From: a virus
Lineage: Duplodnaviria > Heunggongvirae > Uroviricota > Caudoviricetes
IMG/VR virus record: IMGVR_UViG_3300010365_001539
Location: 76-64,075 of that record
Length of the DNA stretch: 64,000 bases
Reading direction: 5' to 3' (one strand)
Within the stretch, counting starts at the first letter, position 1. Every line of letters begins with the position of its first letter. Position numbers and translations under genes: made by a program. Positions 18,300-61,431 of the stretch are shown here, piece by piece. The notes under the pieces are model-generated. The model was given only the letters and a program-made list of their open reading frames with translations. It ran no database searches and was not told the origin of the DNA.

Positions 18300-18503
18300 A
18301 TGAAAAGTCCACTAACTGGAAAAGAAATGATTCTAATGTCAGAACCTGACACACTTGAATATAAAGGTAAAGTTTATGATGTTATACATCATTTTTACTT
18401 ATGTATAGATACTAATGAAAGGTTCACCACAACTGAATTAGATGAATTAAACTTAAAAGAATTACAAGATGAAGTTAATATGCAAAAAAGTAGGTCCAAC
18501 TAA
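18300..18503 (+). CDS. hypothetical protein
   Basis: 67-aa ORF with an ATAATATG junction. Confidence 0.4.
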   Translation: MKSPLTGKEMILMSEPDTLEYKGKVYDVIHHFYLCIDTNERFTTTELDELNLKELQDEVNMQKSRSN

Positions 18504-18693
18504 AGATAGATTTAGATTAACCATAGGAAAAGAATATAATTCTATTGGACATTACAAAAATAGATATGATGATACTATAATACAAAGTTATAGAGTTGTT
18601 AATGATGATGGTCTTGAATGTCTATATGACTACACAATGTTTCATTCATTAGAAGAAATAAGAGATAGTAAATTAAAAAAATTAGGAATATGA
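18469..18693 (+). CDS. small protein of the C-terminal KLxxLGI-motif family
   Basis: Contains LTIGKEY. Ends EEIRDSKLKKLGI. Its stop overlaps the next ATG (ATATGA). Confidence 0.5.
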   Translation: MKLICKKVGPTKDRFRLTIGKEYNSIGHYKNRYDDTIIQSYRVVNDDGLECLYDYTMFHSLEEIRDSKLKKLGI

Positions 18694-18893
18694 AAGTATA
18701 TTGTCATGATAATAATTGGTTAGATAAAGAACCTAAACTAACAATTGGTAAGATGTATGAAGTGATTGAAGAAAGAGGACACAATTATTTTCTAATTGAA
18801 AATGATGAAGGTAAAAGAGAAATTTTCCCGAGATCTTGTTTTCAGTACATTGAACAAATGAGAGAAACAAAACTAAGAAAATTAGGAATATGA
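18690..18893 (+). CDS. small protein of the C-terminal KLxxLGI-motif family
   Basis: Starts MKVYC. Contains LTIGKMYEV. Ends MRETKLRKLGI. ATGA overlap on both sides. Confidence 0.5.
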   Translation: MKVYCHDNNWLDKEPKLTIGKMYEVIEERGHNYFLIENDEGKREIFPRSCFQYIEQMRETKLRKLGI

Positions 18894-19360
18894 TAGTTAT
18901 AAAACCAGATAGTTTAGAACAAGAATGTAATATGACATCTGTATTTCTTGCAGGTTCAATTGAAATGGGATTAGCAGAAGATTGGCAAACAAAAACTTCT
19001 GAGTTGTTTAAAGACACTGATGTTACTTTCTTTAACCCAAGAAGAGATGGTTGGGATTCAAGTTGGACTCAAGAAAGAATTAATAAAGAGTTTTCACATC
19101 AAGTGAATTGGGAAATGGATAGTTTAGAAGAGTGTGATATAATCTTTATGAATATATTACCTGGTACAAAAAGTCCAATCACTTTATTAGAACTTGGATT
19201 ACATGCCAACTCTAAAAAGATTATAGTTTGTTGTCCAGATGGATTTTGGAGAAAAGGAAATGTAGAAATTGTTTGTAGTAGATTTAAAATACCTCTTTAT
19301 AACAATTTTGAAGAAGCAGTTGAAAAATTAAAAGATATGATAAAAAATTCCTCTAAGTGA
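18890..19360 (+). CDS. nucleoside 2-deoxyribosyltransferase-like protein
   Basis: N-terminal VFLAGSI. The pattern ...NPRRDGW ... PGTKSPITLLELGLHANSKKIIV is typical of the nucleoside 2-deoxyribosyltransferase (NDT/Rcl) fold. Confidence 0.6.
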   Translation: MIVIKPDSLEQECNMTSVFLAGSIEMGLAEDWQTKTSELFKDTDVTFFNPRRDGWDSSWTQERINKEFSHQVNWEMDSLEECDIIFMNILPGTKSPITLLELGLHANSKKIIVCCPDGFWRKGNVEIVCSRFKIPLYNNFEEAVEKLKDMIKNSSK

Positions 19361-19374
19361 GGAATTTTTTTTAT
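19346..19374 (+). terminator. rho-independent terminator overlapping the stop of 18890..19360
   Basis: Hairpin AATTCCTC-TAAGT-GAGGAATT followed by TTTTTTTT. Confidence 0.65.
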
Positions 19375-19396
19375 CTTTACAAAAAATAATATAATA

Positions 19397-19645
19397 ATGG
19401 AAACAAATAATGATAATGGTGACTTCATCTATTTCATAGCTTATCCAGGTGGTGATAGAACTAAAATAACTGTATGTTATGAGTCTATTGCTTGTGATTA
19501 TGAAATAAATGATTATGCATTAGCCTCAAGAGGAAGATGGTATGACTTCAAAGAAGCAAATGAATATTGTAAACAATTAGCAAAGGATAATAATTTAATC
19601 TTCATCAACTCTGATGATGGTGATGGTAATGACTATTTAGACTAA
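19397..19645 (+). CDS. hypothetical acidic protein
   Basis: 82-aa ORF with a D/G-rich C-terminus. Confidence 0.45.
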   Translation: METNNDNGDFIYFIAYPGGDRTKITVCYESIACDYEINDYALASRGRWYDFKEANEYCKQLAKDNNLIFINSDDGDGNDYLD

Positions 19646-20163
19646 TGAAAGATAAATATGAAAATTTTACAAGTGAACAACTTACTAAAGCATTTGAGAA
19701 GTTGGGAATTGTAAAGATGATTGATAGAATAGAATCTGGTGAGGATCCTAATATTAGATTCTCAAGGTTTGATACTTGTTACATAAGTGAGATTCAATAT
19801 GTTGATAGATTATCTGAAATTACAAGAAGATATACAAGATTATCTGACACATTTGAAAGAGCATATCAAGTATTAAAAGATTGGTATGAAATTGATAATC
19901 AATTTTATAGAAGAGAAAAAGATTTTCTAACTTGTGATTATGGATTTGTATGTAGATATGATTTACCAAAGATTACTATTGATATAAATAAGTTTCATAC
20001 TCATTTATATCATATAAGAGTTGCATATCAACATTATGATAGTACTTGGTATGATACAAAAGATTTAGAAAAAGATTTAAACAAAATTTTAGAAAAATTA
20101 CTTGATGAATCAACAGATAAAATTTTAAAAAGAGAACTTAAATTAAGAAAAATACTATGTTAA
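19645..20163 (+). CDS. hypothetical protein
   Basis: 172-aa ORF with an ATGA overlap upstream. Confidence 0.45.
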   Translation: MKDKYENFTSEQLTKAFEKLGIVKMIDRIESGEDPNIRFSRFDTCYISEIQYVDRLSEITRRYTRLSDTFERAYQVLKDWYEIDNQFYRREKDFLTCDYGFVCRYDLPKITIDINKFHTHLYHIRVAYQHYDSTWYDTKDLEKDLNKILEKLLDESTDKILKRELKLRKILC

Positions 20164-20576
20164 TGTATTATAAAGATTGTGTATTTCCAATTAAGTGGAA
20201 AACACTTATGGAAAAAGGAATGTGGTATTCAATGGAACCAAGTCAAATAACTGCAACAATACCTAAAGAAGATTATAAAAAGATTAGAATGTCTTTACTT
20301 AATTCAATTAGACATAGAACTCAGGAAAATTTTATAATTAATAGACCTGGTAAATGGGAAGATGAACATGAATCTGGTAAAGTTTATTTTAAAAACTATC
20401 TTGGTGGATTATATGGGTACATAGATTGTGATATGATGATTAGAAGAGCAACAAAACTTAGTGAAAACTCAAAAGAAGTTAAGATAGTTATAGAGTTTGA
20501 TTGTAACTATGAACAAATTGAAGACAAATCAATAATAAGAGATTTACTATTAAAAAATTTATTACATGAAAATTAA
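20157..20576 (+). CDS. hypothetical protein
   Basis: 139-aa ORF. Confidence 0.45.
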   Translation: MLMYYKDCVFPIKWKTLMEKGMWYSMEPSQITATIPKEDYKKIRMSLLNSIRHRTQENFIINRPGKWEDEHESGKVYFKNYLGGLYGYIDCDMMIRRATKLSENSKEVKIVIEFDCNYEQIEDKSIIRDLLLKNLLHEN

Positions 20577-20919
20577 TAAAATTATATTAAGAATACTACA
20601 CTTCTTTGGTGTGGCAAAAACTCAAGCACATATAGATGATGTTAAAATCTATATACCAAGTGATTATGGTCATAATGGATATAATTTTGAATTTACAACT
20701 CAAATAGTTGATGATATTAAGGAACAAGCATATAGAGAATTAGAAAAGAATACTAAGTTAAAGAAGTGGTGTACCAGAACCAAACAGATATGGGTTGTTT
20801 TACCAGGTGGTCTAATGAAGGTATTTAATTATATTGATGGTACTTTATACTGGCCAGGATTAGAAGATGTTGCAGCACAAAGAGCCAATAAATTAAGTAA
20901 GATATTAAATGAAGAATAA
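20566..20919 (+). CDS. hypothetical protein
   Basis: 117-aa ORF. Confidence 0.45.
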   Translation: MKINKIILRILHFFGVAKTQAHIDDVKIYIPSDYGHNGYNFEFTTQIVDDIKEQAYRELEKNTKLKKWCTRTKQIWVVLPGGLMKVFNYIDGTLYWPGLEDVAAQRANKLSKILNEE

Positions 20920-21076: not shown

Positions 21077-21502
21077 ATGAAATTAAATGTAGATTTTATA
21101 GACAGAGAAGATTATATTTGGATATATCAAAATTGTGATATATTCAAAAAATATCTATATGATTACTTTGACTTTAAAGGTAAAGGTCTAACACACTGGG
21201 CAATTAGAGTAAGTGCAAATGGTCATTATATAAAAGTAACTCTACACAAAGCACCTAAATTAAATGAGGTAAGTTGGATGATACTTAATGGTAGTTTAGA
21301 TAGTAACACTGATATTGGTGCAAGAATAGGTGGAGGTATTGGAACAATAACAAACTCAATCAATGTTGCAGGTGCAAAAAATCAACCTATACAATCTAAA
21401 GAATTAGATGGAATAAAAGAAGAAACTCAAGGTACTTACTTTAAGGACATAATGAGAATAATTAAAAGAGATATTAAACTTAAAACAATATTAAATGAAT
21501 AA
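21077..21502 (+). CDS. hypothetical protein
   Basis: 141-aa ORF. Confidence 0.45.
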   Translation: MKLNVDFIDREDYIWIYQNCDIFKKYLYDYFDFKGKGLTHWAIRVSANGHYIKVTLHKAPKLNEVSWMILNGSLDSNTDIGARIGGGIGTITNSINVAGAKNQPIQSKELDGIKEETQGTYFKDIMRIIKRDIKLKTILNE

Positions 21503-21893
21503 AGAAGAATTAAAAACTGTGATTGGTTCACTAATGTCCGATCTTAGACTTTTCAATACTTTTACAACATTTTCTCCTAAATTAGGGAATTGGGCATATG
21601 ACTATTTAGAAAGAATGAAATTACTTATTGAACTATTAAATGAATTGAAATCATTAGAACCTGAACTTGAATCAGATTGTGACAACTTAATCAGTCATAC
21701 AGAAAGAGAGATTGAAGATCCATTTGATGGTAGAACTTTTAGAGGTGCTTTTCTTTATGCATATCAAAGTGAAGAAGGTTGTACCAGAGAAGTACATACA
21801 TATTTAGAGAGAATTTTAACACATCCAGAATATAATAACATTGAAGTAAATATTGCAACTCAAAGAGAAGAAAAACTAAACCAAATACTATGA
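21495..21893 (+). CDS. hypothetical protein
   Basis: 132-aa ORF ending REEKLNQIL (a weak variant of the C-terminal motif). Confidence 0.45.
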   Translation: MNKEELKTVIGSLMSDLRLFNTFTTFSPKLGNWAYDYLERMKLLIELLNELKSLEPELESDCDNLISHTEREIEDPFDGRTFRGAFLYAYQSEEGCTREVHTYLERILTHPEYNNIEVNIATQREEKLNQIL

Positions 21894-26108: not shown

Positions 26109-26396
26109 ATGAAGAATATTAAGTACATAGATGGTCAAACTAACTTCTCTTTTGATAATAGATTAGAATATGATGGGTTAGAATTACCAATTCTACCAAT
26201 TGGTGCAACAGTATCTACAAGATATACACAAGATGTAATTGTGGGTATTGAATATTTAGGTTGTGGTTTCAGATACAAAATACAAACTGTAAAAGTAAAA
26301 CCAGGACCTGAATTTCTTACTAAGGATTTATTTGTTGGTAAGATTACAGAAACTTATGCACACCAATTAACTACAATTGATAAAATCTCTGTATAA
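26109..26396 (+). CDS. hypothetical protein
   Basis: 95-aa ORF. Confidence 0.45.
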   Translation: MKNIKYIDGQTNFSFDNRLEYDGLELPILPIGATVSTRYTQDVIVGIEYLGCGFRYKIQTVKVKPGPEFLTKDLFVGKITETYAHQLTTIDKISV

Positions 26397-26776
26397 TGGA
26401 TGAAATACAACATGACCTTATTGTAGAATATATCAAAAATGGTGGTGAAATGTGGGTACTTGAAGCCATAAATACTTACAGGGATGGTGGTACTAAATCA
26501 TTGGAGACTAATATGAAAAAACCTAATAGCACAGGTTTTATACAATATTACATCCACAAAAATAATTGGACAATACATTATAGTTATCCAACTTATATTG
26601 GTAATGATGAAGAAAGTATTATTACTAACAAACCAACCATTGCATATATAATGGATAGACTTAATAGATATAAAGAGAATATAGAACATAAGTTAAAATC
26701 AACTAATTCAATTATAGAAAACCTTTCAATTGAGGGAATTAGAGACAGAAAAATTAATGAAATTTTAGATAAATGA
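26396..26776 (+). CDS. hypothetical protein with a C-terminal RDRKINEILDK motif variant
   Basis: 126-aa ORF with an ATAATG junction. Confidence 0.45.
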   Translation: MDEIQHDLIVEYIKNGGEMWVLEAINTYRDGGTKSLETNMKKPNSTGFIQYYIHKNNWTIHYSYPTYIGNDEESIITNKPTIAYIMDRLNRYKENIEHKLKSTNSIIENLSIEGIRDRKINEILDK

Positions 26777-27243
26777 AAGAAGAATTGATAAATAAAATAT
26801 TAGATTCCTTATATGAAGGAACTAAAGCAGGTGCAGTAATATGGTCACTAAGAAAAACTATTTTCAATAGTGAAACTAGTCATAATATGAATACATTGTC
26901 AACTGATGGTGAAACTGAATTTCAGGTTGAAATACATTTAGATGATAGTTTAAAATTAAAATCAGGAACCAGTCTTATTATACGTAATAAGAAAATATTA
27001 GATGGTTATGCATCTACTTCTTCTTATAAAAATGATACTCTAAAAGAATTGGAAAAACTCATCTTTGAAAATTTTATTAAACCAACTCTTAAACCAAGAA
27101 GTAATGATGAATATGTACTTGAAGATATTCTAAATAGTATTGGATCCAAAGAATATATGAGAGATAAAAAATTAGAACAGATATTAGGTGAAGATAAAGA
27201 AGAAACAAAAACAGAAGAAAAGAAAAATTGGAGATTATGGTAA
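26773..27243 (+). CDS. hypothetical protein
   Basis: 156-aa ORF. Internal RDKKLEQILGE motif variant near the C-terminus. Confidence 0.45.
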   Translation: MKEELINKILDSLYEGTKAGAVIWSLRKTIFNSETSHNMNTLSTDGETEFQVEIHLDDSLKLKSGTSLIIRNKKILDGYASTSSYKNDTLKELEKLIFENFIKPTLKPRSNDEYVLEDILNSIGSKEYMRDKKLEQILGEDKEETKTEEKKNWRLW

Positions 27244-27533
27244 GAGTTTGTTATAGTACAGAGTTTGGTGATTATGAAAAAGTAATTTCTATTAATGAGA
27301 TTGCAGACTTCTCTAAAGATTATACAATAACTTCTGTTGAAGAGGTTGAACAAGAAAAAGAATATCAAGTAATCACAAGACAGATGGCAAAAGAAATGGC
27401 CAGAAGTAGAGATTGTCATTGTGTTTTAGGTAAAGATAGAGATAGTAACTTTGACCAAGTTATAGATAAAGTCTATGATTACTTTGAACAATATGAAAGA
27501 AATAAAAAACTAGAACAAATATTATCCAAATAA
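27228..27533 (+). CDS. hypothetical protein with a C-terminal ERNKKLEQILSK motif variant
   Basis: 101-aa ORF. Confidence 0.45.
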   Translation: MEIMVRVCYSTEFGDYEKVISINEIADFSKDYTITSVEEVEQEKEYQVITRQMAKEMARSRDCHCVLGKDRDSNFDQVIDKVYDYFEQYERNKKLEQILSK

Positions 27534-31078: not shown

Positions 31079-31240
31079 ATGAAAGTAAGAGATAAACAAA
31101 CTGGAAAAATTGAAACTGTTATAGATAAAACTATCAATAGTTTCTGTGTTACAAGAACCAAATTAACCGAAGATGGTATTAACTGTACTCAGTGGTTCAC
31201 ACAAGGTGACTTCTATAAAAAATTTGAAGAAGTTAAGTAA
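31079..31240 (+). CDS. small hypothetical protein (53 aa)
   Basis: Fills the gap with a TAATG overlap to 31240. Below the track cutoff. Confidence 0.35.
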   Translation: MKVRDKQTGKIETVIDKTINSFCVTRTKLTEDGINCTQWFTQGDFYKKFEEVK

Positions 31241-49145: not shown

Positions 49146-49168
49146 ATAATCTTTTGTACTTTTGTACT

Positions 49169-50448: not shown

Positions 50449-50754
50449 ATGACACTTGATAATAAAATTATAGGTACTGCAGTAGATTATTTTGCAAATG
50501 TTAAAGATTGTGACTCAGATGATATTCCTGTTGACTGGGATGAAACTGGTGATCCAAACCTTATCTCTTTAAAAGAGTTTAACCTTGTTGGTGAAATAAT
50601 TGCATCACAAGTTTCTTTTTGGGCTCTTAGAAGAATGTATAACTCTTGTCAATCAAATTGTGATTACATGCAAACCATTATGAGAAATAAAATCAAAGAG
50701 TATGAAGATCAATTTGGTGAGTTCAAAAACTATAATTCTAAAAGTATATGGTAA
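50449..50754 (+). CDS. hypothetical protein
   Basis: 101-aa ORF preceded by TATCTTTG. Confidence 0.45.
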   Translation: MTLDNKIIGTAVDYFANVKDCDSDDIPVDWDETGDPNLISLKEFNLVGEIIASQVSFWALRRMYNSCQSNCDYMQTIMRNKIKEYEDQFGEFKNYNSKSIW

Positions 50755-50984
50755 TCAAAATAGGAGACACTGTACACATCTTAAATTTTACTCATAAAAG
50801 ATTACCTAGACTTAAAACAGGTGAAATATGTAGGGTTAAACAAATAACAAAAACCTACAAGTTTAATCCACCATCAACTACTATCAAATATCTACTTGAT
50901 AATGGTAAAGAATATGATGGTAAAGAACTAGAATTTGATAAAGAACTATCCAGAGATAACAGATTAAAAGACCTACTTAAATGA
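50748..50984 (+). CDS. small protein of the C-terminal motif family
   Basis: Ends SRDNRLKDLLK. Confidence 0.45.
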   Translation: MVIKIGDTVHILNFTHKRLPRLKTGEICRVKQITKTYKFNPPSTTIKYLLDNGKEYDGKELEFDKELSRDNRLKDLLK

Positions 50985-51478
50985 TAATTGCAAGTGAAGC
51001 CTTAATAGGTAAAAAATTCAAAGTTAAATGTATAAAAGAACATTTAAACCTCACATTGGGAAAAGAATATGATGTTTGTTATGTTGTAAGTGATGTAAAA
51101 TACTATCTTATTGAAAATGATAGAGGTATAAGATTATATAAACCTGCTTACTATTTTGAACCAATTGATATAAAAGAAGCAGAAAAAATAGAAGAAATTG
51201 TAATAAAAGACTTAGAATACTACAATAGTATCAAAAAAGTAGTATGTATTACTAAAGAATACAGAGGTTCTACCTATAATGGTGGTGCAATTGTAGGGGA
51301 AATATATGATGTAGTAGAATATCTTGCCAATGTTCATCCAAATGGTAGATTTAGAATAAAAGGTAAATTAGAAGGTATTGAATATTCTTCTGGTATACAA
51401 ACAATTGACATTTTCCCAAAAGAATTATTTATTACATTAGAACAACATAGACAAAACCAATTAGAAAAAATATTATGA
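50981..51478 (+). CDS. C-terminal motif family protein (165 aa)
   Basis: Contains KVKCIKEHLNLTLGKEYDV...ENDRG. Ends HRQNQLEKIL. Confidence 0.45.
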   Translation: MIIASEALIGKKFKVKCIKEHLNLTLGKEYDVCYVVSDVKYYLIENDRGIRLYKPAYYFEPIDIKEAEKIEEIVIKDLEYYNSIKKVVCITKEYRGSTYNGGAIVGEIYDVVEYLANVHPNGRFRIKGKLEGIEYSSGIQTIDIFPKELFITLEQHRQNQLEKIL

Positions 51479-51699
51479 TAAATGCTAAAGTAAAAGTTAT
51501 AAATGAAACAAGTGAATATGCTTTTGAAAAAGAACTTAATAACTTTTTAGAAACTATTGATTCTAGACAAATAGTTAAGACTGAATTCTCAACATGTTGT
51601 ACTAGTGCTGGTAGTGTTAAATTTTCTGTATTAATATACTATGTAGGTATTGATGATATTAGAGATGTAAAAATTGAAAACATATTAGAAATTAAATAG
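51475..51699 (+). CDS. Cse60-like small protein with an appended C-terminal DIRDVKIENILEIK motif
   Basis: MINAKVKVINE...LNNFLETID...IYYVGID resembles the Cse60 family pattern. First copy of a tandem duplicate. Confidence 0.45.
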   Translation: MINAKVKVINETSEYAFEKELNNFLETIDSRQIVKTEFSTCCTSAGSVKFSVLIYYVGIDDIRDVKIENILEIK

Positions 51700-51921
51700 A
51701 TGATAAATGCCAAAGTAAAAATATTAACAGCAGGTTATACTGGTGACTTAGAAAAAAATGTAAATGAATTCCTAGAAACAATTGATATTAGACAAGTAGT
51801 TAAAATGGATTTTACTGCAACTGGTGACCAAGATAATAAAAGAATCTATTGTAACATTATCTATGTAGGTATTGATGATATTAGAGATGCAAAAATTGAT
51901 AACATATTAGAAATTAAATAA
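51700..51921 (+). CDS. Cse60-like small protein, tandem paralog of 51475..51699
   Basis: MINAKVKILTAG...VNEFLETIDIRQVVK...IIYVGIDDIRDAKIDNILEIK. Confidence 0.45.
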   Translation: MINAKVKILTAGYTGDLEKNVNEFLETIDIRQVVKMDFTATGDQDNKRIYCNIIYVGIDDIRDAKIDNILEIK

Positions 51922-51923: not shown

Positions 51924-52142
51924 ATGAATGAATTAGTAAAAGTTGGTAGAACTATGAAATCTACCTTTGAACAAATTTCAGAACAAGGTTTCCTTAATCA
52001 GTTTCCAGATTCTGAATTTAGAAATGAATCCCACTTCTCTGGGATAGGTGATGTTTACATCAAAAGTGAATTAGTAGAGGATTTCAAACAATTGAAAGCA
52101 GACATGATTGAAGCAAATGGTAGCTTTCCAATTCTTGACTAA
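51924..52142 (+). CDS. hypothetical protein
   Basis: 72-aa ORF. Confidence 0.4.
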   Translation: MNELVKVGRTMKSTFEQISEQGFLNQFPDSEFRNESHFSGIGDVYIKSELVEDFKQLKADMIEANGSFPILD

Positions 52143-52432
52143 TGGAACTAAAAGAATTTTTAGAAACCTTCATCTGTAGAAACTCCATAATAAGATTATG
52201 GTATACTGCTAAAGGTGGTCATGAAATGGTTGTACCGGATGATAAAAAATCTGCTTGTATAGAATGGTCCATAATAAAAGGAGAAGGTGTTTATAAAAAA
52301 TACTTAAAACATAAGGTAATTGGTGTTACTGATATATTTAGTTCTGGTGCTTACCCAGAAGCAATTAATATTGTAATTGAAAAAATTGAACTTGATGATT
52401 GGAGACAACAACAGCTAAATAAATTAATATAA
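52142..52432 (+). CDS. hypothetical protein (ends WRQQQLNKLI)
   Basis: 96-aa ORF. Confidence 0.45.
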   Translation: MELKEFLETFICRNSIIRLWYTAKGGHEMVVPDDKKSACIEWSIIKGEGVYKKYLKHKVIGVTDIFSSGAYPEAINIVIEKIELDDWRQQQLNKLI

Positions 52433-52839
52433 TGAATAAAGAAATAATTATGATTGAAGAATTGAGAAAATATTTTGAATTTAGTGGAACCATATCAGGT
52501 ACACAATACATTCTTAGAAACCTTGTATCATCTATTGCAGCATTCACAGCAGGTGGTGTAATTGGATTAGGCTTAGTAATAAACAGTTTAGTAGTAATAC
52601 TCTTAGGAATGTTAATATTACTACCAGTATTATGGTTTGCAACTGCAAATATCTACAAAAGAATTAAAGCTTTCTTCCCTAACCAAGCTATTGCTCTTAC
52701 TACAGGATTAGCCTTGTTACAACTAATCTCACCTTTTGGTAAAGGTGAAACCTGGGGAGTCTTACTAAACTTAGTACTACTTATCATTGGAATATTACTT
52801 ATATTCTGTAACTCTAATACCAAAGAACACAATGGATAA
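52432..52839 (+). CDS. integral membrane protein (4 predicted TM segments)
   Basis: 135-aa ORF with long hydrophobic stretches. Confidence 0.5.
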   Translation: MNKEIIMIEELRKYFEFSGTISGTQYILRNLVSSIAAFTAGGVIGLGLVINSLVVILLGMLILLPVLWFATANIYKRIKAFFPNQAIALTTGLALLQLISPFGKGETWGVLLNLVLLIIGILLIFCNSNTKEHNG

Positions 52840-53149
52840 TAAACCACTAAAGTATGTTGTATGTGAACACTTAACATACTTTCCATCAAGAGAATCAAGT
52901 TGGTTAAAATCAGCACCTCTTACTATTGGTAAAGTCTATGAAATAGGTAAAACTATGATTGCAAAGGATTTTAGGGATGATGATGAATATCAAGTACTTG
53001 AACCTGATGAAAAAAGATTTAATGATTGTATTACTATCTCCAGTTCTATTAAAGAATACTATTATCCTAAAACCTTATTCAGAGAAGCCACACAAGAAGA
53101 AATAACTTCTTTTAAAAGAAATAGAAAACTAAATGATATAGGAATATAA
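52787..53149 (+). CDS. C-terminal motif family protein
   Basis: Contains LTIGKVYEIGK. Ends KRNRKLNDIGI. Confidence 0.45.
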   Translation: MEYYLYSVTLIPKNTMDNKPLKYVVCEHLTYFPSRESSWLKSAPLTIGKVYEIGKTMIAKDFRDDDEYQVLEPDEKRFNDCITISSSIKEYYYPKTLFREATQEEITSFKRNRKLNDIGI

Positions 53150-53433
53150 TGAGTGATTTTGTAATACCTGGTGAGAAACCTAAGTTTGAATCTCATACAG
53201 ATGAAGTTGTGTTCATTCCCAATAGTGCTTTAGAAAGTAATGATTCAACATTACAAGACTGGATGCTTATGGAAATTACACCTGAGAAATATTATGAGGC
53301 AACTATATCAGAGAAATCAGTATCTTTTTCAAATGATTTAAACCGTTGGAGAACATACAAAAGACAATTCTTTGAAACTAAACAAGAAAGAAGAGATAAA
53401 AAAATTGAAATACTTTTAAACATTGATAATTAA
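53149..53433 (+). CDS. hypothetical protein (C-terminal RRDKKIEILLNIDN motif variant)
   Basis: 94-aa ORF. Confidence 0.45.
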   Translation: MSDFVIPGEKPKFESHTDEVVFIPNSALESNDSTLQDWMLMEITPEKYYEATISEKSVSFSNDLNRWRTYKRQFFETKQERRDKKIEILLNIDN

Positions 53434-53551: not shown

Positions 53552-53989
53552 ATGAATAAAATCTACCTTAAACTTAAAACAGATATATCAATACTAGTAG
53601 CAGATGGTTACTGGTCACTTCATTGTGGTGATATGATTGTATTACATAAAATTGGAACCAGAAGTGAAATTAAACGTAATGAATATAAGGCAAATGAATA
53701 TATTCATGAAGATTCTTATTTATTAACTGGATTTGAATATAAAACCATTAAAGATATTAGAACTATGGAATATCATACAGTTTGGAATGAATGCAATTCA
53801 GTTGATACTTTAATAACAATATCTACAGGTAAACCTTTATATCATAGTAGAACTTATAACTATTATGATATACTACAACTAACTAAATCAAATACACCAT
53901 TAGTTGACAAGTTTAGATATGATGATATATTTGAAGATGTATCAACCCCATATAACAGAGAAAATAAATTAGAAGAAATATTACAATGA
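53552..53989 (+). CDS. hypothetical protein (ends NRENKLEEILQ)
   Basis: 145-aa ORF. Confidence 0.45.
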   Translation: MNKIYLKLKTDISILVADGYWSLHCGDMIVLHKIGTRSEIKRNEYKANEYIHEDSYLLTGFEYKTIKDIRTMEYHTVWNECNSVDTLITISTGKPLYHSRTYNYYDILQLTKSNTPLVDKFRYDDIFEDVSTPYNRENKLEEILQ

Positions 53990-54405
53990 AAAACTTTCTA
54001 CCATATAAAGAATCAATTGCTATGAAAGAAATAGGTTTTGATGAACCTTGTTTAGGTGCTTGGAGTAATATTGACAACAAACCTGAATTTTCTTATAATA
54101 AGAAACCAACCAAGTACTCTAAAATGTTTACTAAGAAATCACCACATTGTGTTGCACCTTTATACCAAGAAGCATTTGACTGGTTCACTGAACAAGGTTT
54201 ATTCTCATATGTTGATAGAACCTATACAAATGGTAAATATGAATATGAATTTCATATTGAAGGTAATAGTGGTTTATTTGGATTTGAAACTAAAAAACTG
54301 GCAGAACAAGCATGTATACGTTCTTTAATATCTATATTGAGAATGGATAAAAATTATATGAAGAAATTAAATAGAGATAACAAATTAAATGAATTAGGAA
54401 TATGA
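53986..54405 (+). CDS. C-terminal motif family protein (ends NRDNKLNELGI)
   Basis: 139-aa ORF. Confidence 0.45.
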   Translation: MKNFLPYKESIAMKEIGFDEPCLGAWSNIDNKPEFSYNKKPTKYSKMFTKKSPHCVAPLYQEAFDWFTEQGLFSYVDRTYTNGKYEYEFHIEGNSGLFGFETKKLAEQACIRSLISILRMDKNYMKKLNRDNKLNELGI

Positions 54406-54590
54406 GTAAATGGATAAACCCACCACTTCACATTATCTGTGGTAAATGTGGTAATAAAAATGAATTAACCTTTAAAATTGATCCTAAAGGTAATGAAGAT
54501 GAAGATGGTAATGAATACCCAGCAGTATATATTAGTTGTGGTAATTGTGGAACACTTACTGGTTTAGATGAAGTTATAGATGAAAAATAA
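54402..54590 (+). CDS. zinc-ribbon small protein
   Basis: CGKCGNKN...CGNCGT (two C-x2-C pairs). Confidence 0.45.
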   Translation: MSKWINPPLHIICGKCGNKNELTFKIDPKGNEDEDGNEYPAVYISCGNCGTLTGLDEVIDEK

Positions 54591-54828
54591 AACAGTTAAA
54601 GAATGGTTGATAGAACATATAAGTGATAACCCAGACATAACTTGGGGTAGTTTATATAGAGATACCTGTTATAGCAAATATAGTAGGGAAATTGATATGT
54701 TAGGTTCTGTATTAAAAAAATTAGTTGATGATGAAGTAATATCTGAAACTAGGAAAGATAATAATAGTTACTACAATTTAGGAAAACAATTACAAAGAAA
54801 TAAGTTATTAAAAAAATTAGGAATATGA
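54580..54828 (+). CDS. C-terminal motif family protein (ends QRNKLLKKLGI)
   Basis: 82-aa ORF. Confidence 0.45.
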   Translation: MKNKTVKEWLIEHISDNPDITWGSLYRDTCYSKYSREIDMLGSVLKKLVDDEVISETRKDNNSYYNLGKQLQRNKLLKKLGI

Positions 54829-56059: not shown

Positions 56060-56986
56060 ATGGAAATAAATAAAGAGTCTTTTATTGTTTATAAAATAAT
56101 AAATAATACAAATAATAAAATTTATATTGGAGTTCATAAGACTTTTAATATAAATGATAGTTATATGGGTTCTAGTGTTAAACTAAAACAAGATATAATT
56201 GAAATAGGTATACAAAAATTCACAAAAGAAATTCTATTTATATTTGATAACAAAGAAGAAATGTTATCAAAAGAATCAGAATTAGTAGATAAACCTTTTG
56301 TAGAAAGAGAAGATACATATAATATAATGTTGGGTGGAGGATTTCTCTGTGGTGAACTAACCAAGAATACAATAGTTGTTAGAGATTTTCAAGGAAATAA
56401 ATTTAGAGTAAATTCAGATGATGAAAGGTATATAAATGGAGAATTTACACCTATTACAAAAGGATATTTAACCGTAAAAGACTTTAACAATAAAACATAT
56501 TTTGTAGAAAAAAATGATGAAAGATATTTAAGTGGAGATTTGGTTCCATATTGGAAAGGAAATAAAAAATCAATAGAATCTATCGAAAAAATAAAAGGTG
56601 TTAATAATCCATTCTATGGTAAAAAACATTCTGATGAAGCCAAATTAAAAATATCCAATGCAAACAAACTAAATGTAGGTGAACTTAATGCATTCTTTGG
56701 TAAAAAACATTCTGATGAAACTAAAGAGATGCTAAGTATAATTGGTAAAGACTTATATAAAAGTGGAAAGAATAAAGGATTTCTTGGTAAAAAACATTCT
56801 GATGAAACCAAATTAAAACTATCACTCATAGACAGAAGTAAAGAGAAAAATTCACAATTTGGTACTTGTTGGATATATAATGAACAACTAAAGAAAAATA
56901 AAAAAATAAAAAAAGATGAACTTGAAATCTGGATAAAGAATGGCTGGATAAAAGGAATGAATAAAAAATTTTTTAATAAACTGTAA
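56060..56986 (+). mobile_element. free-standing GIY-YIG homing endonuclease with three NUMOD3 repeats
   Basis: N-terminal GIY...YIG (FIVYKIINNTNNKIYIGVHKT ... YMGS). Three repeats NPFYGKKHSDEAKLKIS, NAFFGKKHSDETKEMLS and KGFLGKKHSDETKLKLS. The NUMOD3 repeats also create nucleotide repeats at about 56590-56830. Confidence 0.8.
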
Positions 56987-57243
56987 TGAAAGTAATTGCC
57001 TTACAAACATTTCCTGATTACTTTATAACTAAAGGTAATATCTATGAAGTAGAAGAAACTCCCTGGATATATGAACCTATTGAGTTTAATAGATATAAAG
57101 ATATGATTATAAAATGTGATGATGGTAAAAGTAGAAAAATTCAAGGTCAAGATAATGTTTATGACCATAGAGAAGTAAAATACACTCACTTCAAAGATGT
57201 AAGAGAATTAAGAGAAGAAAAATTAAACCAATTAGGTATATGA
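56986..57243 (+). CDS. C-terminal motif family protein (ends LREEKLNQLGI)
   Basis: 85-aa ORF. Confidence 0.45.
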   Translation: MKVIALQTFPDYFITKGNIYEVEETPWIYEPIEFNRYKDMIIKCDDGKSRKIQGQDNVYDHREVKYTHFKDVRELREEKLNQLGI

Positions 57244-57767: not shown

Positions 57768-58007
57768 ATGGCAAGAAAATTAGTAACCATAGATATAGAA
57801 ACATCACCATTAGGTCCTTTTTCACTTGAATCAATTGATATGGTGAACAAAAGATGTCCTTGTGGAAAAGGCAGATTCAGAGAAATGTACCTACATAATG
57901 ATTGGAATGGTACACTAAATTGTAAAGCTTGTGATAAAGAAACTAAAAGATATATAACCTTGGCAGATTATAGAGAACAACAAATCAATAAAATATTAGA
58001 TGAATAA
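57768..58007 (+). CDS. Cys-containing small protein (ends YREQQINKILDE)
   Basis: C-x-C-G...C-x2-C. 79 aa. Confidence 0.45.
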   Translation: MARKLVTIDIETSPLGPFSLESIDMVNKRCPCGKGRFREMYLHNDWNGTLNCKACDKETKRYITLADYREQQINKILDE

Positions 58008-58359
58008 AATAGAATTATACTTAGTTAAATCAAGCTCAGGTTCCTATGATGATTATAGAGAATCCAATGAACCTATTATTTATGCCACCTTAGAAGCAGC
58101 AGAGAAGAGAAAACAAGAAATAATTGATGCACATAAAGTAGAACCATTTCCACTTGATTGGTGTACTGAACAAGAGTTTGACGAACTTAGATATGATGAT
58201 GAAGTAAAGAGAAGTAAGATAACTAATGAACATATAGAAATTGTTGATCAATGGGAAATGGAAAATCATTATGCACAAGACTTTGGATCAGCTTGGGTAC
58301 AAACTATTGAATTAGATATGCAAAGCTGGAGAGAAAGGCAATTAAATGGACTTATCTAA
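58000..58359 (+). CDS. hypothetical protein (ends WRERQLNGLI)
   Basis: 119-aa ORF. Confidence 0.45.
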   Translation: MNKIELYLVKSSSGSYDDYRESNEPIIYATLEAAEKRKQEIIDAHKVEPFPLDWCTEQEFDELRYDDEVKRSKITNEHIEIVDQWEMENHYAQDFGSAWVQTIELDMQSWRERQLNGLI

Positions 58360-58784
58360 TGGAAGATGTTGCAAAGAAAATAGTTAGTAAGTGGAAAGAA
58401 ATTATTGAGTCCTACTCTATTAAAGTTGGTGATATAAGTTTATTTAGAATGAATAAATACTATACAGGTTATCCTGAAATAGAATACTGTTATAAAGTTA
58501 ACTTTGACTTTGGATTAAATCCATCAGATGGAATGACTTCTTGGGAAAAGAATAAAAGAGATAGACTTATGAAAGAACTTGAGTTAAACTTTATTGATAG
58601 ATTTCAACCTCAACTTGTTGATAAAACATTAGGTACAGATTATAATAGTGGTGAAACTAAATTCCATAATGATAAAGTAGATTACTTTACCAACCAAGGT
58701 CACAGAATAATTATACAATTCTATCCACAAGGATTTATAGATGAATTAAGAGAAGATAAACTAAACCAATTAGGAATAATATAA
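58359..58784 (+). CDS. C-terminal motif family protein (ends LREDKLNQLGII)
   Basis: 141-aa ORF. Confidence 0.45.
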   Translation: MEDVAKKIVSKWKEIIESYSIKVGDISLFRMNKYYTGYPEIEYCYKVNFDFGLNPSDGMTSWEKNKRDRLMKELELNFIDRFQPQLVDKTLGTDYNSGETKFHNDKVDYFTNQGHRIIIQFYPQGFIDELREDKLNQLGII

Positions 58785-58789
58785 TCAAT

Positions 58790-58987: not shown

Positions 58988-59099
58988 ACCATTTGAATAC
59001 CAAGAAACTAAAGGTCTTTTTGGTAATACAACTGAAACCTATGGTGAAGTTATTTTAAGAAATACAAAAGAGTTTTTAACAATTAAAGAAGTACTATAA
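58911..59099 (+). CDS. small hypothetical protein; possibly the 3' part of a frameshifted gene
   Basis: 62-aa ORF overlapping the upstream ORF by 77 nt. Confidence 0.3.
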   Translation: MNWKQKKVLGAMEATLVMEGHLEYAKPFEYQETKGLFGNTTETYGEVILRNTKEFLTIKEVL

Positions 59100-59470
59100 T
59101 GGAATATAACTATGAACAACATATTGACTCTATTGGTGAAATTGCTGATAGAATCAACCTTGATAAAATTACAATCCTTACCGGTAGAAATGCTGGTGGG
59201 AAAAGCTTAGTAAGAAAAGTACTAAGACAAAATATGAAAAAACTTAAATGTATTAAGAAGAATGAATGGCCTAATGGTAAAATAACCATAGGTAAACTTT
59301 ATGAGTTTGATTCTATAAGTGTTATACATGAATTAGAAGATGCTTATGTAGGTTCAACTTCATCTTACTATATTAAAGATGATAATGGTCAATATAAATA
59401 TTTCCTTAAAGAATGCTTCATAGATATAGTAGAAGATAGAGATAATAAATTAAATGAATTAGGTATATGA
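59099..59470 (+). CDS. C-terminal motif family protein
   Basis: Contains LKCIKKNEWPNGKITIGKLYEF...DDNG. Ends DRDNKLNELGI. Confidence 0.45.
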   Translation: MEYNYEQHIDSIGEIADRINLDKITILTGRNAGGKSLVRKVLRQNMKKLKCIKKNEWPNGKITIGKLYEFDSISVIHELEDAYVGSTSSYYIKDDNGQYKYFLKECFIDIVEDRDNKLNELGI

Positions 59471-59721
59471 AACCAGGTGATATAGTAGTATGTGTTAGTT
59501 TAGATAATAGTGAATATTCTAATAGAACTAAATTTGAAAGTAGAAATGAACTAACCATTGGTAAATCTTATACCATACAAGAATCTTGGCCAGGTAATAC
59601 CAATTGTGTAGTGATTAATGACAAGAATAGCTTAGGTGAATACTGGTCCTATAGATTCATTTCATTAGAGAAATGGAGAGAACAACAACTAAATCAGATA
59701 TTAGATGAAGAGACCTTTTAA
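59467..59721 (+). CDS. C-terminal motif family protein
   Basis: Contains ELTIGKSYTIQE...NDKN. Ends WREQQLNQILDEETF. Confidence 0.45.
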   Translation: MKPGDIVVCVSLDNSEYSNRTKFESRNELTIGKSYTIQESWPGNTNCVVINDKNSLGEYWSYRFISLEKWREQQLNQILDEETF

Positions 59722-59947
59722 CCTACCTTCCATAGCAGAACTGGCTATAGCACAGTCAACAGCTTATCATAATGATATGTTACTATATCAAAAACAATTA
59801 GAAGAACTTGAAGCCATAGCTAACCAATCAGTGTATGACCTATTCAAATGTGAAGAGCTAAGAAGAAAGATTAATGATTGTGTTGTTATGTTAGATAAAT
59901 ATAAACCAGAGATAAGAGAAGAAAAACTAAAACAACTTGGTATATGA
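59705..59947 (+). CDS. C-terminal motif family protein (ends IREEKLKQLGI)
   Basis: 80-aa ORF. Confidence 0.45.
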   Translation: MKRPFNLPSIAELAIAQSTAYHNDMLLYQKQLEELEAIANQSVYDLFKCEELRRKINDCVVMLDKYKPEIREEKLKQLGI

Positions 59948-60165
59948 AAGTAATGTGTATAAAAGAAATGACATCAACTGATACGGTATTCAATAGTATC
60001 AAGATAGGTGACTGGATTGAAGTAAATGAAAAGTCTATATACACCAAAACTAATGAAGATCCTAATAAGAATAACTATTACTACTTTATTAGAAATGGCG
60101 AATATGCTCTTCATAAAAGTAACTTCATTACTCTAAGAGAATATAACCTAAACAAACTGATATGA
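59944..60165 (+). CDS. C-terminal motif family protein (starts MKVMCIKE, ends REYNLNKLI)
   Basis: 73-aa ORF. Confidence 0.45.
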   Translation: MKVMCIKEMTSTDTVFNSIKIGDWIEVNEKSIYTKTNEDPNKNNYYYFIRNGEYALHKSNFITLREYNLNKLI

Positions 60166-60408
60166 AATTAGTTAAATGTGTTAATAAAGGTGCAGGTGAA
60201 TACTTAACCATTGGAAAACTTTATGAAGTCAGTAGAGTAGTCAATCAAACCAACTCAAAATGGTTGGCTGAGTTTGGTGAACAAATGTTTATAGAAGTTA
60301 TAAATGATAAAGGTGTTTCTCTTCTATTTTAATATGACTGGAGATAAACCTAACTTCATAGATATTGAAGAAGATAGAAATAATAAACTAAATCAATTAG
60401 GTATATGA
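60162..60408 (+). pseudogene. family member split by a +1 frame change: a 56-aa body (60162..60332) and a 24-aa orphan tail carrying the C-terminal motif (60334..60408)
   Basis: Body is MKLVKCVNKGAGEYLTIGKLYEV...SLLF*. Its frame stops at a TAA at 60330. The ATG at 60334 opens the +1 frame, which reads MTGDKPNFIDIEEDRNNKLNQLGI*. That tail ends in the family motif and has the usual ATGA overlap with the next gene. Confidence 0.45.
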
Positions 60409-60635
60409 AATGGGTTAAATGTGTAAATAAATTAGGTAATGGTTTTACCTATGATAAAATCTATGAAGTTAAAAACTACTTTGATTGGAATGGTCTAAAA
60501 TACATAGAACTAATAGATGATAATGGTAGATTAATTGTACAGGATATGTTTCCATCACATCCAAATGCTAGATTATGGTTTGAAGATGTAACATCAGATA
60601 TGAGAGATAATAAACTAAATGACTTAGGAATATGA
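60405..60635 (+). CDS. C-terminal motif family protein
   Basis: Starts MKWVKCVNK. Contains DDNGRLIV. Ends MRDNKLNDLGI. Confidence 0.5.
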   Translation: MKWVKCVNKLGNGFTYDKIYEVKNYFDWNGLKYIELIDDNGRLIVQDMFPSHPNARLWFEDVTSDMRDNKLNDLGI

Positions 60636-60922
60636 TGACACTAAGTAAAATAAATAACTCTGAATGGAAACTAAGTAGATACAATGAACAAGGTAAATCA
60701 CTTGCTTTCTTTATACTTAGGCAAAAAGATGATAAGTACTATATTGCTCCAGCAGAGACTTTTATACCAATAAAAAATCAAATAAAAGAGTGGCTAATAG
60801 AAGAAGCTATACCACAATTCTTCTCAAGAAAACTAGGATCACTCAAAACAGATATGGACTTTGATTATGGTATAATAACATCAATGTTTAGAGATAATAA
60901 ATTAAATGATTTGGGAATATGA
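60632..60922 (+). CDS. C-terminal motif family protein (ends FRDNKLNDLGI)
   Basis: 96-aa ORF. Confidence 0.45.
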   Translation: MMTLSKINNSEWKLSRYNEQGKSLAFFILRQKDDKYYIAPAETFIPIKNQIKEWLIEEAIPQFFSRKLGSLKTDMDFDYGIITSMFRDNKLNDLGI

Positions 60923-61191
60923 CCGAACAAGAAAAAGATGATTATATACTAATGATAAATCAAGTAGTTGATACTGGTAGAGAATTGCTTTGTATAGATG
61001 ATTCACAACAAGAAGAATATCTAACCAAAGGGAAAAGATATAAAGTTTATTCTCATATTGATAATCCTTCTATTAGAATCAAAACTAAAGATATAAATGG
61101 TAGAGAGGTATATAGTTCTTTCTCAGGATCAAGATTTCAAAGTATAGAAGATATTAGAGAAGAAAAACTAAAACAATTAGGAATACTGTAA
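60919..61191 (+). CDS. C-terminal motif family protein (ends IREEKLKQLGIL)
   Basis: 90-aa ORF. Confidence 0.45.
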   Translation: MTEQEKDDYILMINQVVDTGRELLCIDDSQQEEYLTKGKRYKVYSHIDNPSIRIKTKDINGREVYSSFSGSRFQSIEDIREEKLKQLGIL

Positions 61192-61200
61192 GTCAAGACT

Positions 61201-61431
61201 ATGTTAGTAAAATGTATTAAAAATTCATATATAGATAGAAACAACCTTGAGTATTATTATAATAATGAAACTTTTGGTAACCTAATCATTGGGAATACTT
61301 ACACTGTAGTCAAACAATATGATAATGGTGATACATATGTGATTAAAGAAATATCTAGATTTGTTCCTGCACACCTATTCATTAATTTAGAAGATTTAAG
61401 AGAACAAAAATTAAACCAATTGGGTATATGA
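61201..61431 (+). CDS. C-terminal motif family protein
   Basis: Starts MLVKCIKN. Contains IGNTYTVV...DNGDTYVI. Ends LREQKLNQLGI. Confidence 0.5.
   Translation: MLVKCIKNSYIDRNNLEYYYNNETFGNLIIGNTYTVVKQYDNGDTYVIKEISRFVPAHLFINLEDLREQKLNQLGI

Follow-up and report, generated by a model that had tools for sequence, protein, structure and literature searches.

A recurrent C-terminal peptide on small proteins with unrelated bodies in a lineage of huge phages

Why should dozens of small phage genes end in the same few residues? We analysed a stretch of 64,000 nucleotides (nt) from a virus of the Caudoviricetes (positions 76 to 64,075 of the IMG/VR record IMGVR_UViG_3300010365_001539), hereafter called the window. 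Many of its + strand genes encode small proteins that share a C-terminal motif close to R-[DE]-x-K-L-x-x-L-G-I, which we call the tail. An earlier note on this DNA had drawn attention to the motif, and the locus raises the questions of whether the resemblance exceeds chance, whether it is the peptide or a nucleotide element at the gene junctions that is conserved, whether the carriers form one family, and what such an ending might do.

A shared C-terminal motif far above chance

The six-frame translation of the window was searched with the strict tail pattern R-x-x-[KRQ]-[LI]-x-x-[LI]-[LGI], which matched 59 times: 52 matches lay on the + strand within 6 residues of a stop codon, 4 were internal on the + strand, and 3 fell in − strand frames. 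In a crude gene call (142 genes, 94% coverage), the tail was present on 49 of 123 + strand genes (~40%) and on 0 of 19 − strand genes. Forty-eight of the 52 tails fall inside 18469-61431, the other 4 belonging to genes that end at 2445, 10437, 11339 and 63423, and degenerate or extended versions occur on at least 6 further window genes. Internal matches to the pattern arise at ~1e-4 per residue (22 in 196,746 amino acids (aa) of the related genome LR745206.1), so that less than 0.1 terminal match, well under 1, is expected by chance for 123 genes. Control segments contained 1-18 internal chance matches per 50 kb, and a genuine terminal tail was absent from 50 kb each of Cellulophaga phages phi38:1 and phi19:1 and Flavobacterium phage FL-1, as well as from 200 kb sampled of the 735-kb phage LR756501.1; phi19:1 and FL-1 had come up as weak DNA matches, but carry no tails. 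The shared C-terminal motif is real and far above chance, in agreement with the claim of the earlier note that many + strand genes carry it.

Position counts and covariation were taken from 184 non-identical tail proteins of the window and related loci. Numbering starts from R at position 1, which is invariant because the search pattern requires it. Position −5 is S, T, D or N in 40% of proteins (N-cap), −4 is K, L or I, and −1 is hydrophobic in 57%; these are followed by D or E at 2 (80%), K at 4 (85%), L or I at 5, N or K at 6, L or I at 8, G (56%) or L at 9, and I at 10, then the stop. Between −10 and −1, Gly and Pro are under-represented. The segment from −4 to +8, [L/I/K]-x-x-h-R-[DE]-x-K-[LI]-x-x-[LI], is predicted to form an amphipathic α-helix that ends either in a Gly-Ile cap (…L-G-I-COOH) or in …I-L-[DENK] with 0-6 extra residues. 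In the LGI class the end is hydrophobic and its position fixed (119 of 184 proteins end exactly at motif position 10), and the IL[DENK] class has polar ends and variable extensions. By helical-wheel reasoning from the position counts, −4, −1, R1, K4, L5 and L8 would share one helix face within an arc of ~140°, and L-x-x-L-G-I would be a standard Gly C-cap with a hydrophobic staple. The C-terminal amphipathic helix suggested earlier is consistent with models of two different bodies, in both of which the tail is predicted helical. A coiled-coil a/d core extending over several heptads was not found; the helix has ~13 residues and a central stripe of (L/K)−4, R1, K4 and L8. A helix-turn-helix (HTH; …L-G-[IV]-S…) was rejected as well, since the protein ends 0-2 residues past Gly-Ile without a second helix, and Pfam scans of 10 + 56 + 10 tail proteins returned no HTH family.

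Both the LGI endings and the sister IL[DE]-type endings noted earlier are present, and they interchange within one orthologous family: homologues of the gene at 21495-21893 end in …REEKLNQIL, …REEKLNSIIKN or …RDQKLNDMGI, indicating that the two variants are the same element. The 21495-21893 product itself has 12 inserted residues (…LFNTFTTFSPKL…) that none of the inspected homologues shares.

The tail genes of the window are given below, each ending running up to the stop codon. The 640-kb relative is a metagenomic scaffold of 640,004 bp (European Nucleotide Archive ERZ28593091, scaffold_2), whose syntenic stretch, at ~87% nucleotide identity, served for the comparison of orthologous tails and for dN/dS.

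Genes with a tail within 18469-61431
18469..18693, +, SH3-like body, …LEEIRDSKLKKLGI; orthologues P0001-P0015 retain the tail
18690..18893, +, SH3-like body, …IEQMRETKLRKLGI
19645..20163, +, unrelated 172-aa body, …KRELKLRKILC
20566..20919, +, tail …QRANKLSKILNEE
21077..21502, +, tail …KRDIKLKTILNE
21495..21893, +, helical body, …QREEKLNQIL; homologues end …LNQIL, …LNSIIKN, …LNDMGI
26396..26776, +, tail …IRDRKINEILDK
27237..27533, +, tail …ERNKKLEQILSK; then a 179-nt gap
29932..30327, +, hydrophobic membrane-like body, …ERDKKLKKILKKNIF; transmembrane-like segments read from the sequence
30646..30897, +, tail …TREKKLNDLGI
31240..31533, +, tail …VRDYKLKNILK
32910..33395, +, tail …IREQKINEILN
33735..33983, +, tail …FREAKINQIIE
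33980..34270, +, tail …QRDSKLTQLGIT; convergent gene next; body paralogous to 60632-60922
35381..35803, +, tail …VRENKIDSILS
35973..36245, +, tail …KRELKLKKILDE
36680..36910, +, tail …VRDKKINQILD; convergent gene next
37485..37889, +, tail …ERNEKLKMILG
37889..38104, +, SH3-like body, …IREEKLKQLGIE; modelled
41843..41995, +, short open reading frame (ORF) with tail …LREQKLKELGIYV
41988..42224, +, SH3-like body, …VRNQKLKQLGL
42221..42466, +, SH3-like body, …IREEKLNKILYEE
44448..44678, +, Cys-rich (Zn-ribbon-like) body, …QRDIKLRKLGIK; Cys pattern read from the sequence
44678..44860, +, CxxC-containing body, …IRDRKIKSIIN
44857..45090, +, TTG start, tail …IRNNRINKILE
45490..45783, +, tail …NRDSKIDTILSNELG
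45770..46102, +, tail …EREQKLKELLYE
50748..50984, +, tail …SRDNRLKDLLK
50981..51478, +, two SH3-like repeats, tail at the end only, …HRQNQLEKIL
51475..51699, +, tail …IRDVKIENILEIK; paralogue pair with 51700..51921
51700..51921, +, tail …IRDAKIDNILEIK; paralogue pair with 51475..51699
52142..52432, +, tail …WRQQQLNKLI
52832..53149, +, SH3-like body, …KRNRKLNDIGI
53149..53433, +, tail …RRDKKIEILLNIDN
53552..53989, +, tail …NRENKLEEILQ
53986..54405, +, tail …NRDNKLNELGI
56986..57243, +, SH3-like body, …LREEKLNQLGI
57768..58007, +, Cys-rich body, …YREQQINKILDE
58000..58359, +, tail …WRERQLNGLI
58359..58784, +, 141-aa body, …LREDKLNQLGII
59099..59470, +, N-terminal extension and SH3-like domain, …DRDNKLNELGI
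59467..59721, +, SH3-like body, …WREQQLNQILDEETF
59705..59947, +, non-SH3 body, …IREEKLKQLGI
60162..60408, +, frameshifted SH3-like gene; body ORF 60162-60332, intact tail …DRNNKLNQLGI (EEDRNNKLNQLGI) in another frame, ending at 60408
60405..60635, +, SH3-like body, …MRDNKLNDLGI
60632..60922, +, tail …FRDNKLNDLGI
60919..61191, +, SH3-like body, …IREEKLKQLGIL
61201..61431, +, SH3-like body, …LREQKLNQLGI

Tails outside 18469-61431
2275..2445, +, short ORF, basic tail variant …NRKRKIENILSNLK; similar tails in IMG/VR loci
9883..10437, +, hydrophobic N-terminus, …NRDTKLKELLND
10890..11339, +, tail …LRDIKLLELGIK; convergent gene next
63187..63423, +, tail …VREYRINQIIC

Degenerate, extended or internal versions
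1588..2106, +, degenerate tail …TREETLNKILDK, T replacing K4
26773..27243, +, non-terminal tail with an acidic/basic extension of 17-18 aa, …RDKKLEQILGEDKEETKTEEKKNWRLW; extension conserved in the orthologue of the 640-kb relative
42456..42716, +, degenerate tail …IRNKALNLLGI
49103..49477, +, internal tail-like …LREIRLNELLG…, 65 aa before the stop; the following residues are K/R-rich, and this extension may reflect a gene fusion
54580..54828, +, degenerate tail …QRNKLLKKLGI
59944..60165, +, degenerate tail …LREYNLNKLI

The frameshifted gene at 60162-60408, which keeps the usual ATGA junction with the next gene, may be a pseudogene of recent origin, contain a sequencing error or undergo programmed frameshifting.

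Conservation as a peptide and the gene junctions

The tail is conserved as a peptide and not as an RNA element or ribosome-binding site. In a DNA weight matrix built from 52 window tails (30 nt each), the mean information at codon positions 1, 2 and 3 was 0.62, 0.99 and 0.45 bits, and this three-periodic profile, highest at codon position 2, is a signature of coding constraint. Synonymous codons are mixed (TTA, CTA, CTT and TTG for Leu; GGA and GGT for Gly; ATA, ATT and ATC for Ile) and are used near the genome background, with AGA at 100% of the Arg positions versus 90% genome-wide; only A-ending codons (CTA, ATA, GGA) deviate, being moderately over-represented. When both strands of the window were scanned with the matrix, only 4 extra sites scored above the 10th percentile of the true instances, all of them in-frame within coding sequence. 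The equally conserved non-coding copies that the earlier note had considered were thus looked for, and neither these nor out-of-frame copies were present.

Comparison of eight orthologous tails with the 640-kb relative revealed 5 synonymous and 2 nonsynonymous changes in the six key residues, and 2 synonymous and 16 nonsynonymous changes in the other eight tail positions. Furthermore, among the 184 proteins an aromatic residue at −1 is paired with Gln instead of Lys at +4 (odds ratio 54, Fisher p = 1.2e-11), and the coupling was repeated in the complete genome LR745206.1 (odds ratio 20, p = 0.002). This covariation spans i to i+4, one helical turn, and is not predicted by a DNA element, which supports selection on the peptide. 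The peptide-level selection that had first been proposed from varying codons is therefore borne out by codon periodicity, synonymous variation, orthologues and covariation alike.

The competing explanation is a nucleotide element at the gene junctions, which might act in translation coupling or initiation, in RNA processing, or as a recombination linker or attC-like boundary. In the window, an ATGA stop/start overlap follows 17 of 49 tail genes versus 7 of 73 non-tail + strand genes; the enrichment is in line with such an element, and arises partly because the final Ile codon ATA precedes TGA. The earlier statement that the stop is almost always fused to the next ATG is nevertheless overstated at 17 of 49, and any overlap with the next gene was seen for 31 of 49 window tails. 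The A-ending codons over-used at several tail positions also fit an element of this kind, the same-strand arrays of small ORFs superficially resemble cassette arrays, and the junction RNA is unusually unstructured, which would aid initiation in hosts of a lineage that relies little on Shine-Dalgarno sequences. In 60-nt windows, the mean minimum free energy at the junctions was −2.1 kcal/mol versus −5.6 kcal/mol in random coding windows (mean z +0.46), and no junction window had z < −2, so that there is no hairpin potential, which argues against attC sites, terminators and the PeSL (promoter early stem-loop) elements discussed below.

Several observations speak against a junction element altogether. 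Of the 49 window tails, 12 are followed by a convergent gene (after 11339, 34270 and 36910) or by a gap of >15 nt, some of these gaps holding uncalled small genes, and in LR745206.1 the same applies to 38 of 105 tails, which have no closely following gene. The median exact run shared between tail copies is 8 nt, and synonymous differences separate copies as well as orthologues. The codon periodicity, the outcome of the matrix scan and the −1/+4 covariation, which lacks a DNA-level explanation, point the same way. Breakpoints of the mosaic relationship between the window and the 640-kb relative did not fall at tails. A nucleotide element is thus largely refuted, and we regard it as extremely unlikely to be the origin of the motif. 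We read the A-ending third-position bias and the unstructured RNA as a superimposed signal that helps the next gene to start, not as the cause of the motif; the ATGA overlap and the mild codon excess would form this secondary nucleotide layer.

The tail might also act while it is being made, as a nascent peptide in the exit tunnel that slows termination and thereby promotes re-initiation on the overlapping ATG. The very short, fixed distance to the stop (119 of 184 proteins end one residue after …LG) and the enriched ATGA junctions would suit this mechanism; for many tails, however, there is no gene downstream that could be coupled, and the ending may be lengthened by a variable 2-6 residues and, in one conserved case, by 17 aa. 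Since conservation of a single face and i/i+4 covariation fit a folded, exposed helix better, we consider a tunnel effect highly unlikely.

Carrier bodies, distribution and a possible docking role

After removal of the tails, 41 of 49 window tail members had no similarity to any other window gene (all-against-all BLASTP, 1e-3), and the 184 tail proteins fell into 147 BLASTP clusters, of which 127 had a single member. These numbers identify the tail as a tag on many unrelated bodies, and the view of one very large family of divergent paralogs had to be abandoned. The carriers are ORFan proteins of roughly 40-240 aa encoded in dense small-gene arrays. A shared body with MKVxCIK, LTIGKxYEV and NDxG elements, as described earlier, is real and is found in a minority: an iterated hidden Markov model of the body only detected this SH3-like body in 13 of 51 window members plus one frameshifted copy, and in 28 of 184 overall. 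Hydrophobic N-terminal segments were read from the sequences of two other carriers (9883-10437, 29932-30327), and Cys-rich, Zn-ribbon-like bodies from those of three more (44448-44678, 44678-44860, 57768-58007).

In an AlphaFold2 (AF2) model the SH3-like body forms a compact five-stranded β-barrel, and the 37889..38104 product is modelled as 5 strands followed by a helix at residues 57-67 (helix predicted local distance difference test score, pLDDT, about 87). The small beta-barrel with a C-terminal helix that had been suggested is thus what the model of an SH3-like member predicts. The 21495-21893 family is modelled as helical, with reasonable confidence for residues 1-62 and low confidence for the tail helix. 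A terminal helix is accordingly predicted on both an SH3-like barrel and a helical body.

A profile of the SH3-like body plus tail matched 4,146 clusters among 1.84 billion representative proteins. All 40 inspected single-domain matches of 63-85 aa end in the tail, the inspected large proteins with 4 and 7 tandem SH3-like copies lack it, and both inspected two-domain proteins carry it on the last copy only. Multi-repeat proteins (P0045-P0051 and similar), the longest array numbering 18 units within 1,941 aa, matched only the body part of the profile, and tail-less SH3-like domains were seen in proteins of 3-18 repeats. The occurrence of the domain without a tail in repeat proteins, and of the tail only on a last copy, indicates that body and tail are separable modules. 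The body seems to be an SH3-like repeat domain without a Pfam model.

The ratio of nonsynonymous to synonymous substitution rates (dN/dS) against the 640-kb relative was 0.30 in eight tail genes and 0.26 in ten neighbours; values of ~0.3 indicate purifying selection and hence that the carriers are real genes. This limited test gave no support to the earlier idea of a rapidly diversifying battery.

We next consider where the tail occurs. Genome scans used a DNA pattern that presupposes the LGI+ATGA form of the tail. A single scan of 185,579 bacterial and archaeal species, one genome each, gave 0 matches to this pattern, and IMG/VR gave 35, many on contigs of 130-483 kb, with tails on at least 30 contigs. 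The IMG/VR loci hold further tails that the pattern had not selected (for example, 17 in 13 kb of locus L002), and their tail genes are interleaved with UvsX/RecA-like, topoisomerase II, dCMP deaminase, NusG-like and metallophosphatase genes as well as NUDIX-like genes, the last read from sequence. Tails are also carried by the published huge phages LR745206.1 (634,780 bp) and LR756502.1 (642,428 bp). In the complete genome LR745206.1, the tail is present on 106 of 951 crude genes (11%) on both strands, namely on 23% of genes of 80-120 aa versus 1% of genes of at least 400 aa. The tail is a lineage-wide trait in these megaphages. Bacteroidetes hosts were predicted by Al-Shayeb et al. 2020 (PMC7162821) for their genomes above 634 kb, and the tail motif is unmentioned in that paper.

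Searches for described relatives were negative. None of 50,697 phage records matched the window DNA at near-identity, a distant DNA search of 56000-62000 against cultured phages matched a homing-endonuclease gene only, and tblastn against cultured phages was negative both for a 71-aa member and for a 20-aa tail. The tail-only profile found a chance match to VAMP2 alone among PDB sequences (E = 1), and a 44-aa profile containing the tail retrieved only orthologues of its first sequence from a large protein database. Among 76 tail proteins (10 + 56 + 10), none exceeded the curated Pfam cut-off, one sub-threshold HD match belonging to a doubtful member; SH3/KOW Pfam families were likewise not reached in 10 members, the best being hSH3 (E = 0.087, 13.8 bits versus a cut-off of 25.7 bits). 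PHROGs returned weak families of unknown function for the SH3-like body and nothing for the other bodies, and a literature of 8 million papers, searched by peptide strings and descriptive phrases, contained no relevant description of the tail. The earlier impression that the proteins belong to no described family holds in Pfam, PHROGs, PDB sequences and the full-text literature, and the motif, its scale and its phage lineage thus seem undescribed in these databases and the searchable literature.

What might the tail do? The reading that we favour, though tentatively, is that it is a portable C-terminal docking peptide of ~14 residues, read by one common receptor. The conserved helix face would dock into this receptor, either phage-encoded or a hub protein of the host, so that dozens to ~100 small accessory proteins per genome, with unrelated folds, would be recruited to the same partner or place; the outcome could be recruitment to a hub, localisation, packaging, turnover by timed proteolysis, or assembly. 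A docking peptide is the simplest explanation for a terminal helix with one conserved face, its independence of fold, purifying selection on that face only, its restriction to small ORFans and ~100 copies per genome. Given that some loci are interleaved with replication and nucleotide-metabolism genes, the carriers are read as accessory genes of a host-takeover type.

Several points weigh against docking to a common receptor. No receptor was identified, and the AF2 models are monomers, which are unable to show docking. The tail set rests on a regular expression, making its borders somewhat arbitrary, and the IMG/VR loci were chosen by the LGI+ATGA pattern, although the other tails there were not so selected. 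In the SH3-like subfamily, the helix abuts the last β-strand without a linker in a high-confidence model, and could there be an integral part of the fold. The IL[DENK] class with its extensions suggests that a free carboxylate may not be essential, weakening analogies with PDZ-type or degron-type recognition. Finally, R and K at the centre of the conserved face make binding to nucleic acid or membrane possible.

The linker-free helix also leads to another explanation, in which the tail is a self-contained helix without a shared partner that stabilises small domains or oligomerises them through tail-tail contacts, spread as a useful generic C-terminal cap. In the model of the SH3-like barrel it directly follows the final strand with good confidence (pLDDT about 87), its conserved positions are spaced 3-4 residues along one face, and small phage proteins often need oligomerisation for stability. 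However, the same R (invariant) and K (85%) recur on bodies of quite different predicted folds, as packing against each body would not predict; an R and K centre is atypical for a homomeric coiled-coil core, the helix is only ~3.5 turns long, and the SH3-like domain occurs without it in repeat proteins. We judge a generic cap unlikely.

The lineage has a second, N-terminal tag, M-K-[YH]-L-[KN]-x-[FY]-(N/E)-E (N-tag), which starts 11 window genes, 8 of them on the − strand and most with dissimilar bodies:

8168-8545, +, N-tag gene
9027-9506, −, N-tag gene
17166-17999, −, N-tag gene
34263-34691, −, N-tag gene
38381-38716, −, N-tag gene
38764-39027, +, N-tag gene
40167-40961, −, N-tag gene
40945-41400, −, N-tag gene
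43086-43679, +, N-tag gene
46667-46966, −, N-tag gene
46976-47419, −, N-tag gene

The N-tag was found 12 times in 9 of the 35 IMG/VR tail loci (including L002, L007, L009, L015, L017, L021, L025 and L032) and on 41 genes of LR745206.1 (~4%), and had no PHROG match. N-tag and tail never occur on the same gene in the window or in LR745206.1. Same-strand runs of LR745206.1 that contain an N-tag gene carry the tail on 7 of 154 genes versus 99 of 797 elsewhere, and 1 of the 41 N-tag genes adjoins a same-strand tail gene. Both tags are absent from the 200 kb sampled of LR756501.1. Two mutually exclusive terminal tags in different transcription units could be a two-address code that routes unrelated small proteins to two destinations, a doubtful though conceivable idea; one class might, for example, go to a hub or compartment of host or phage and the other to the virion. 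If true, Bacteroidetes-associated huge phages of roughly 630-640 kb and their relatives would have their own counterpart of signal or encapsulation peptides on ~150 proteins per genome.

The exclusion of the N-tag, together with the limitation of the tail to small accessory ORFans, would also suit a C-terminal degron or adaptor tag through which a host or phage protease clears an accessory class at a defined time of infection. Established C-terminal degrons include ssrA and the MuA C-terminus, and the tail is likewise strictly C-terminal, with hydrophobic ends in the LGI class. On the other hand, the polar ends and variable extra residues of the IL[DENK] class suggest that recognition may not depend on the very end, degrons such as those named are simpler than a helix of 14 residues with an invariant Arg, and no protease or adaptor candidate was identified. 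A dedicated degron is therefore quite unlikely.

Returning to the docking peptide, huge phages have hundreds of small genes without recognisable function, and one tag is present on about a tenth of them; a single experiment that identifies its binding partner could assign ~100 'dark' proteins per genome to one shared pathway. The tail marks a megaphage lineage: the genomes of 634, 640 and 642 kb have it, the sampled one of 735 kb does not, and this contrast is usable for finding the receptor by comparative genomics. If the tail is a docking or targeting signal, it would be a short, portable and apparently fold-independent tag usable for cargo delivery.

Neighbouring genes and comparison with known systems

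Other genes and features of the window are as follows.

2989-5046, looks like a TonB-dependent-receptor-like outer-membrane protein with a signal peptide (read from the translation)
5407-5955, looks like a PnuC-like transporter (likewise)
6823-7833, looks like a NadR-like enzyme (likewise)
11332-13866, −, and 13875-16076, −, two large genes, one with long collagen-like G-x-T-G-S-Q-G-[VA]-T repeats near both ends
24571-25701, 27920-29170 and 47410-48369, three paralogues of 320-416 aa without a Pfam domain
29222-29935, microbial-type poly(ADP-ribose) glycohydrolase domain (Pfam, E = 1e-19)
31601-32422, SPFH/Band 7 protein (Pfam, E = 3e-15)
42843-42915, tRNA-Glu (anticodon TTC) in a gap of the small-gene array
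48420-49145, R2K-clade ATP-grasp enzyme (Pfam, E = 3e-38)
56060-56986, GIY-YIG-type homing endonuclease with repeated …FYGKKHSDE… modules

The products of 2989-5046, 5407-5955 and 6823-7833 may be auxiliary, and those of 13875-16076 and 11332-13866 look like fibre or structural proteins. Homologues of the three 320-416 aa paralogues (~29-33% identity) are present in Cellulophaga phages phi38:1, phi40:1 and Calle, and at 7-15 places in each 634-735-kb huge phage. The 5' part of the homing endonuclease gene has 67-75% DNA similarity to T4-like coliphages, Vibrio phages and LR756502.1. Relative to the 640-kb scaffold (L038), the window has block insertions or replacements at 22245-24545, 25682-26405 and 27639-27643, with extra − strand genes at 22266-24476, and a 3.9-kb block of the relative with TPM-phosphatase and LemA genes is missing at window position 27640; the region is mosaic and hyperplastic. 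ATP-grasp enzymes of the R2K clade are thought to modify protein carboxylates, and the one at 48420-49145 is a tentative candidate for a tail-modifying enzyme; a search of IMG/VR revealed no relatives that would make it a co-occurring partner of the tail.

Among known systems, the attC sites of integron cassettes were rejected, since the conserved element lies within the ORF and the junctions fold more weakly than random coding windows. PeSL cassettes in the hyperplastic regions of T4-type phages consist of a non-coding promoter plus hairpin at the boundaries of small accessory genes. The tail resembles them as a repeated short conserved sequence at the boundaries of small accessory genes in large phages, but lies inside coding sequence, is conserved as a peptide and has no hairpin, and the defining features of a PeSL were not found. 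Small β-barrels of the SH3-like/KOW type cover only a quarter of tail-bearing genes and are uninformative on the tail.

In leader peptides of ribosomally synthesised and post-translationally modified peptides (RiPPs), such as the prochlorosins, one conserved recognition peptide is joined to highly diverse remainders in dozens of genes and is read by one protein for all of them. Unlike in RiPP leaders, the conserved part here is C-terminal and the variable parts are folded domains of 40-240 aa instead of short cores; no modifying enzyme is linked to the tail, the R2K-type ATP-grasp of the window being a lead at the level of coincidence.

Devices in which a terminal peptide targets or docks diverse cargo are already known, RiPP leaders among them, and the tail may be compared with two further examples. 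Encapsulin and bacterial-microcompartment peptides are short terminal peptides, often amphipathic helices, that sit on unrelated cargo and are read by one receptor surface. The tail is similarly a terminal peptide on unrelated proteins (147 BLASTP clusters), but its consensus, R-[DE]-x-K-L-x-x-L-G-I, differs, and it is carried by ~100 ORFans per genome instead of a few enzymes; no shell or encapsulin gene turned up, with no systematic search made for one. The capsid targeting sequence of T4 is an N-terminal tag of roughly 10 residues on small internal proteins that is removed by the prohead protease. It resembles the tail in being a terminal tag common to several small phage proteins, whereas the tail is C-terminal and has no evident cleavage site; the MKYLKxFNE N-terminal tag of this lineage is, loosely, the closer counterpart of the T4 sequence.

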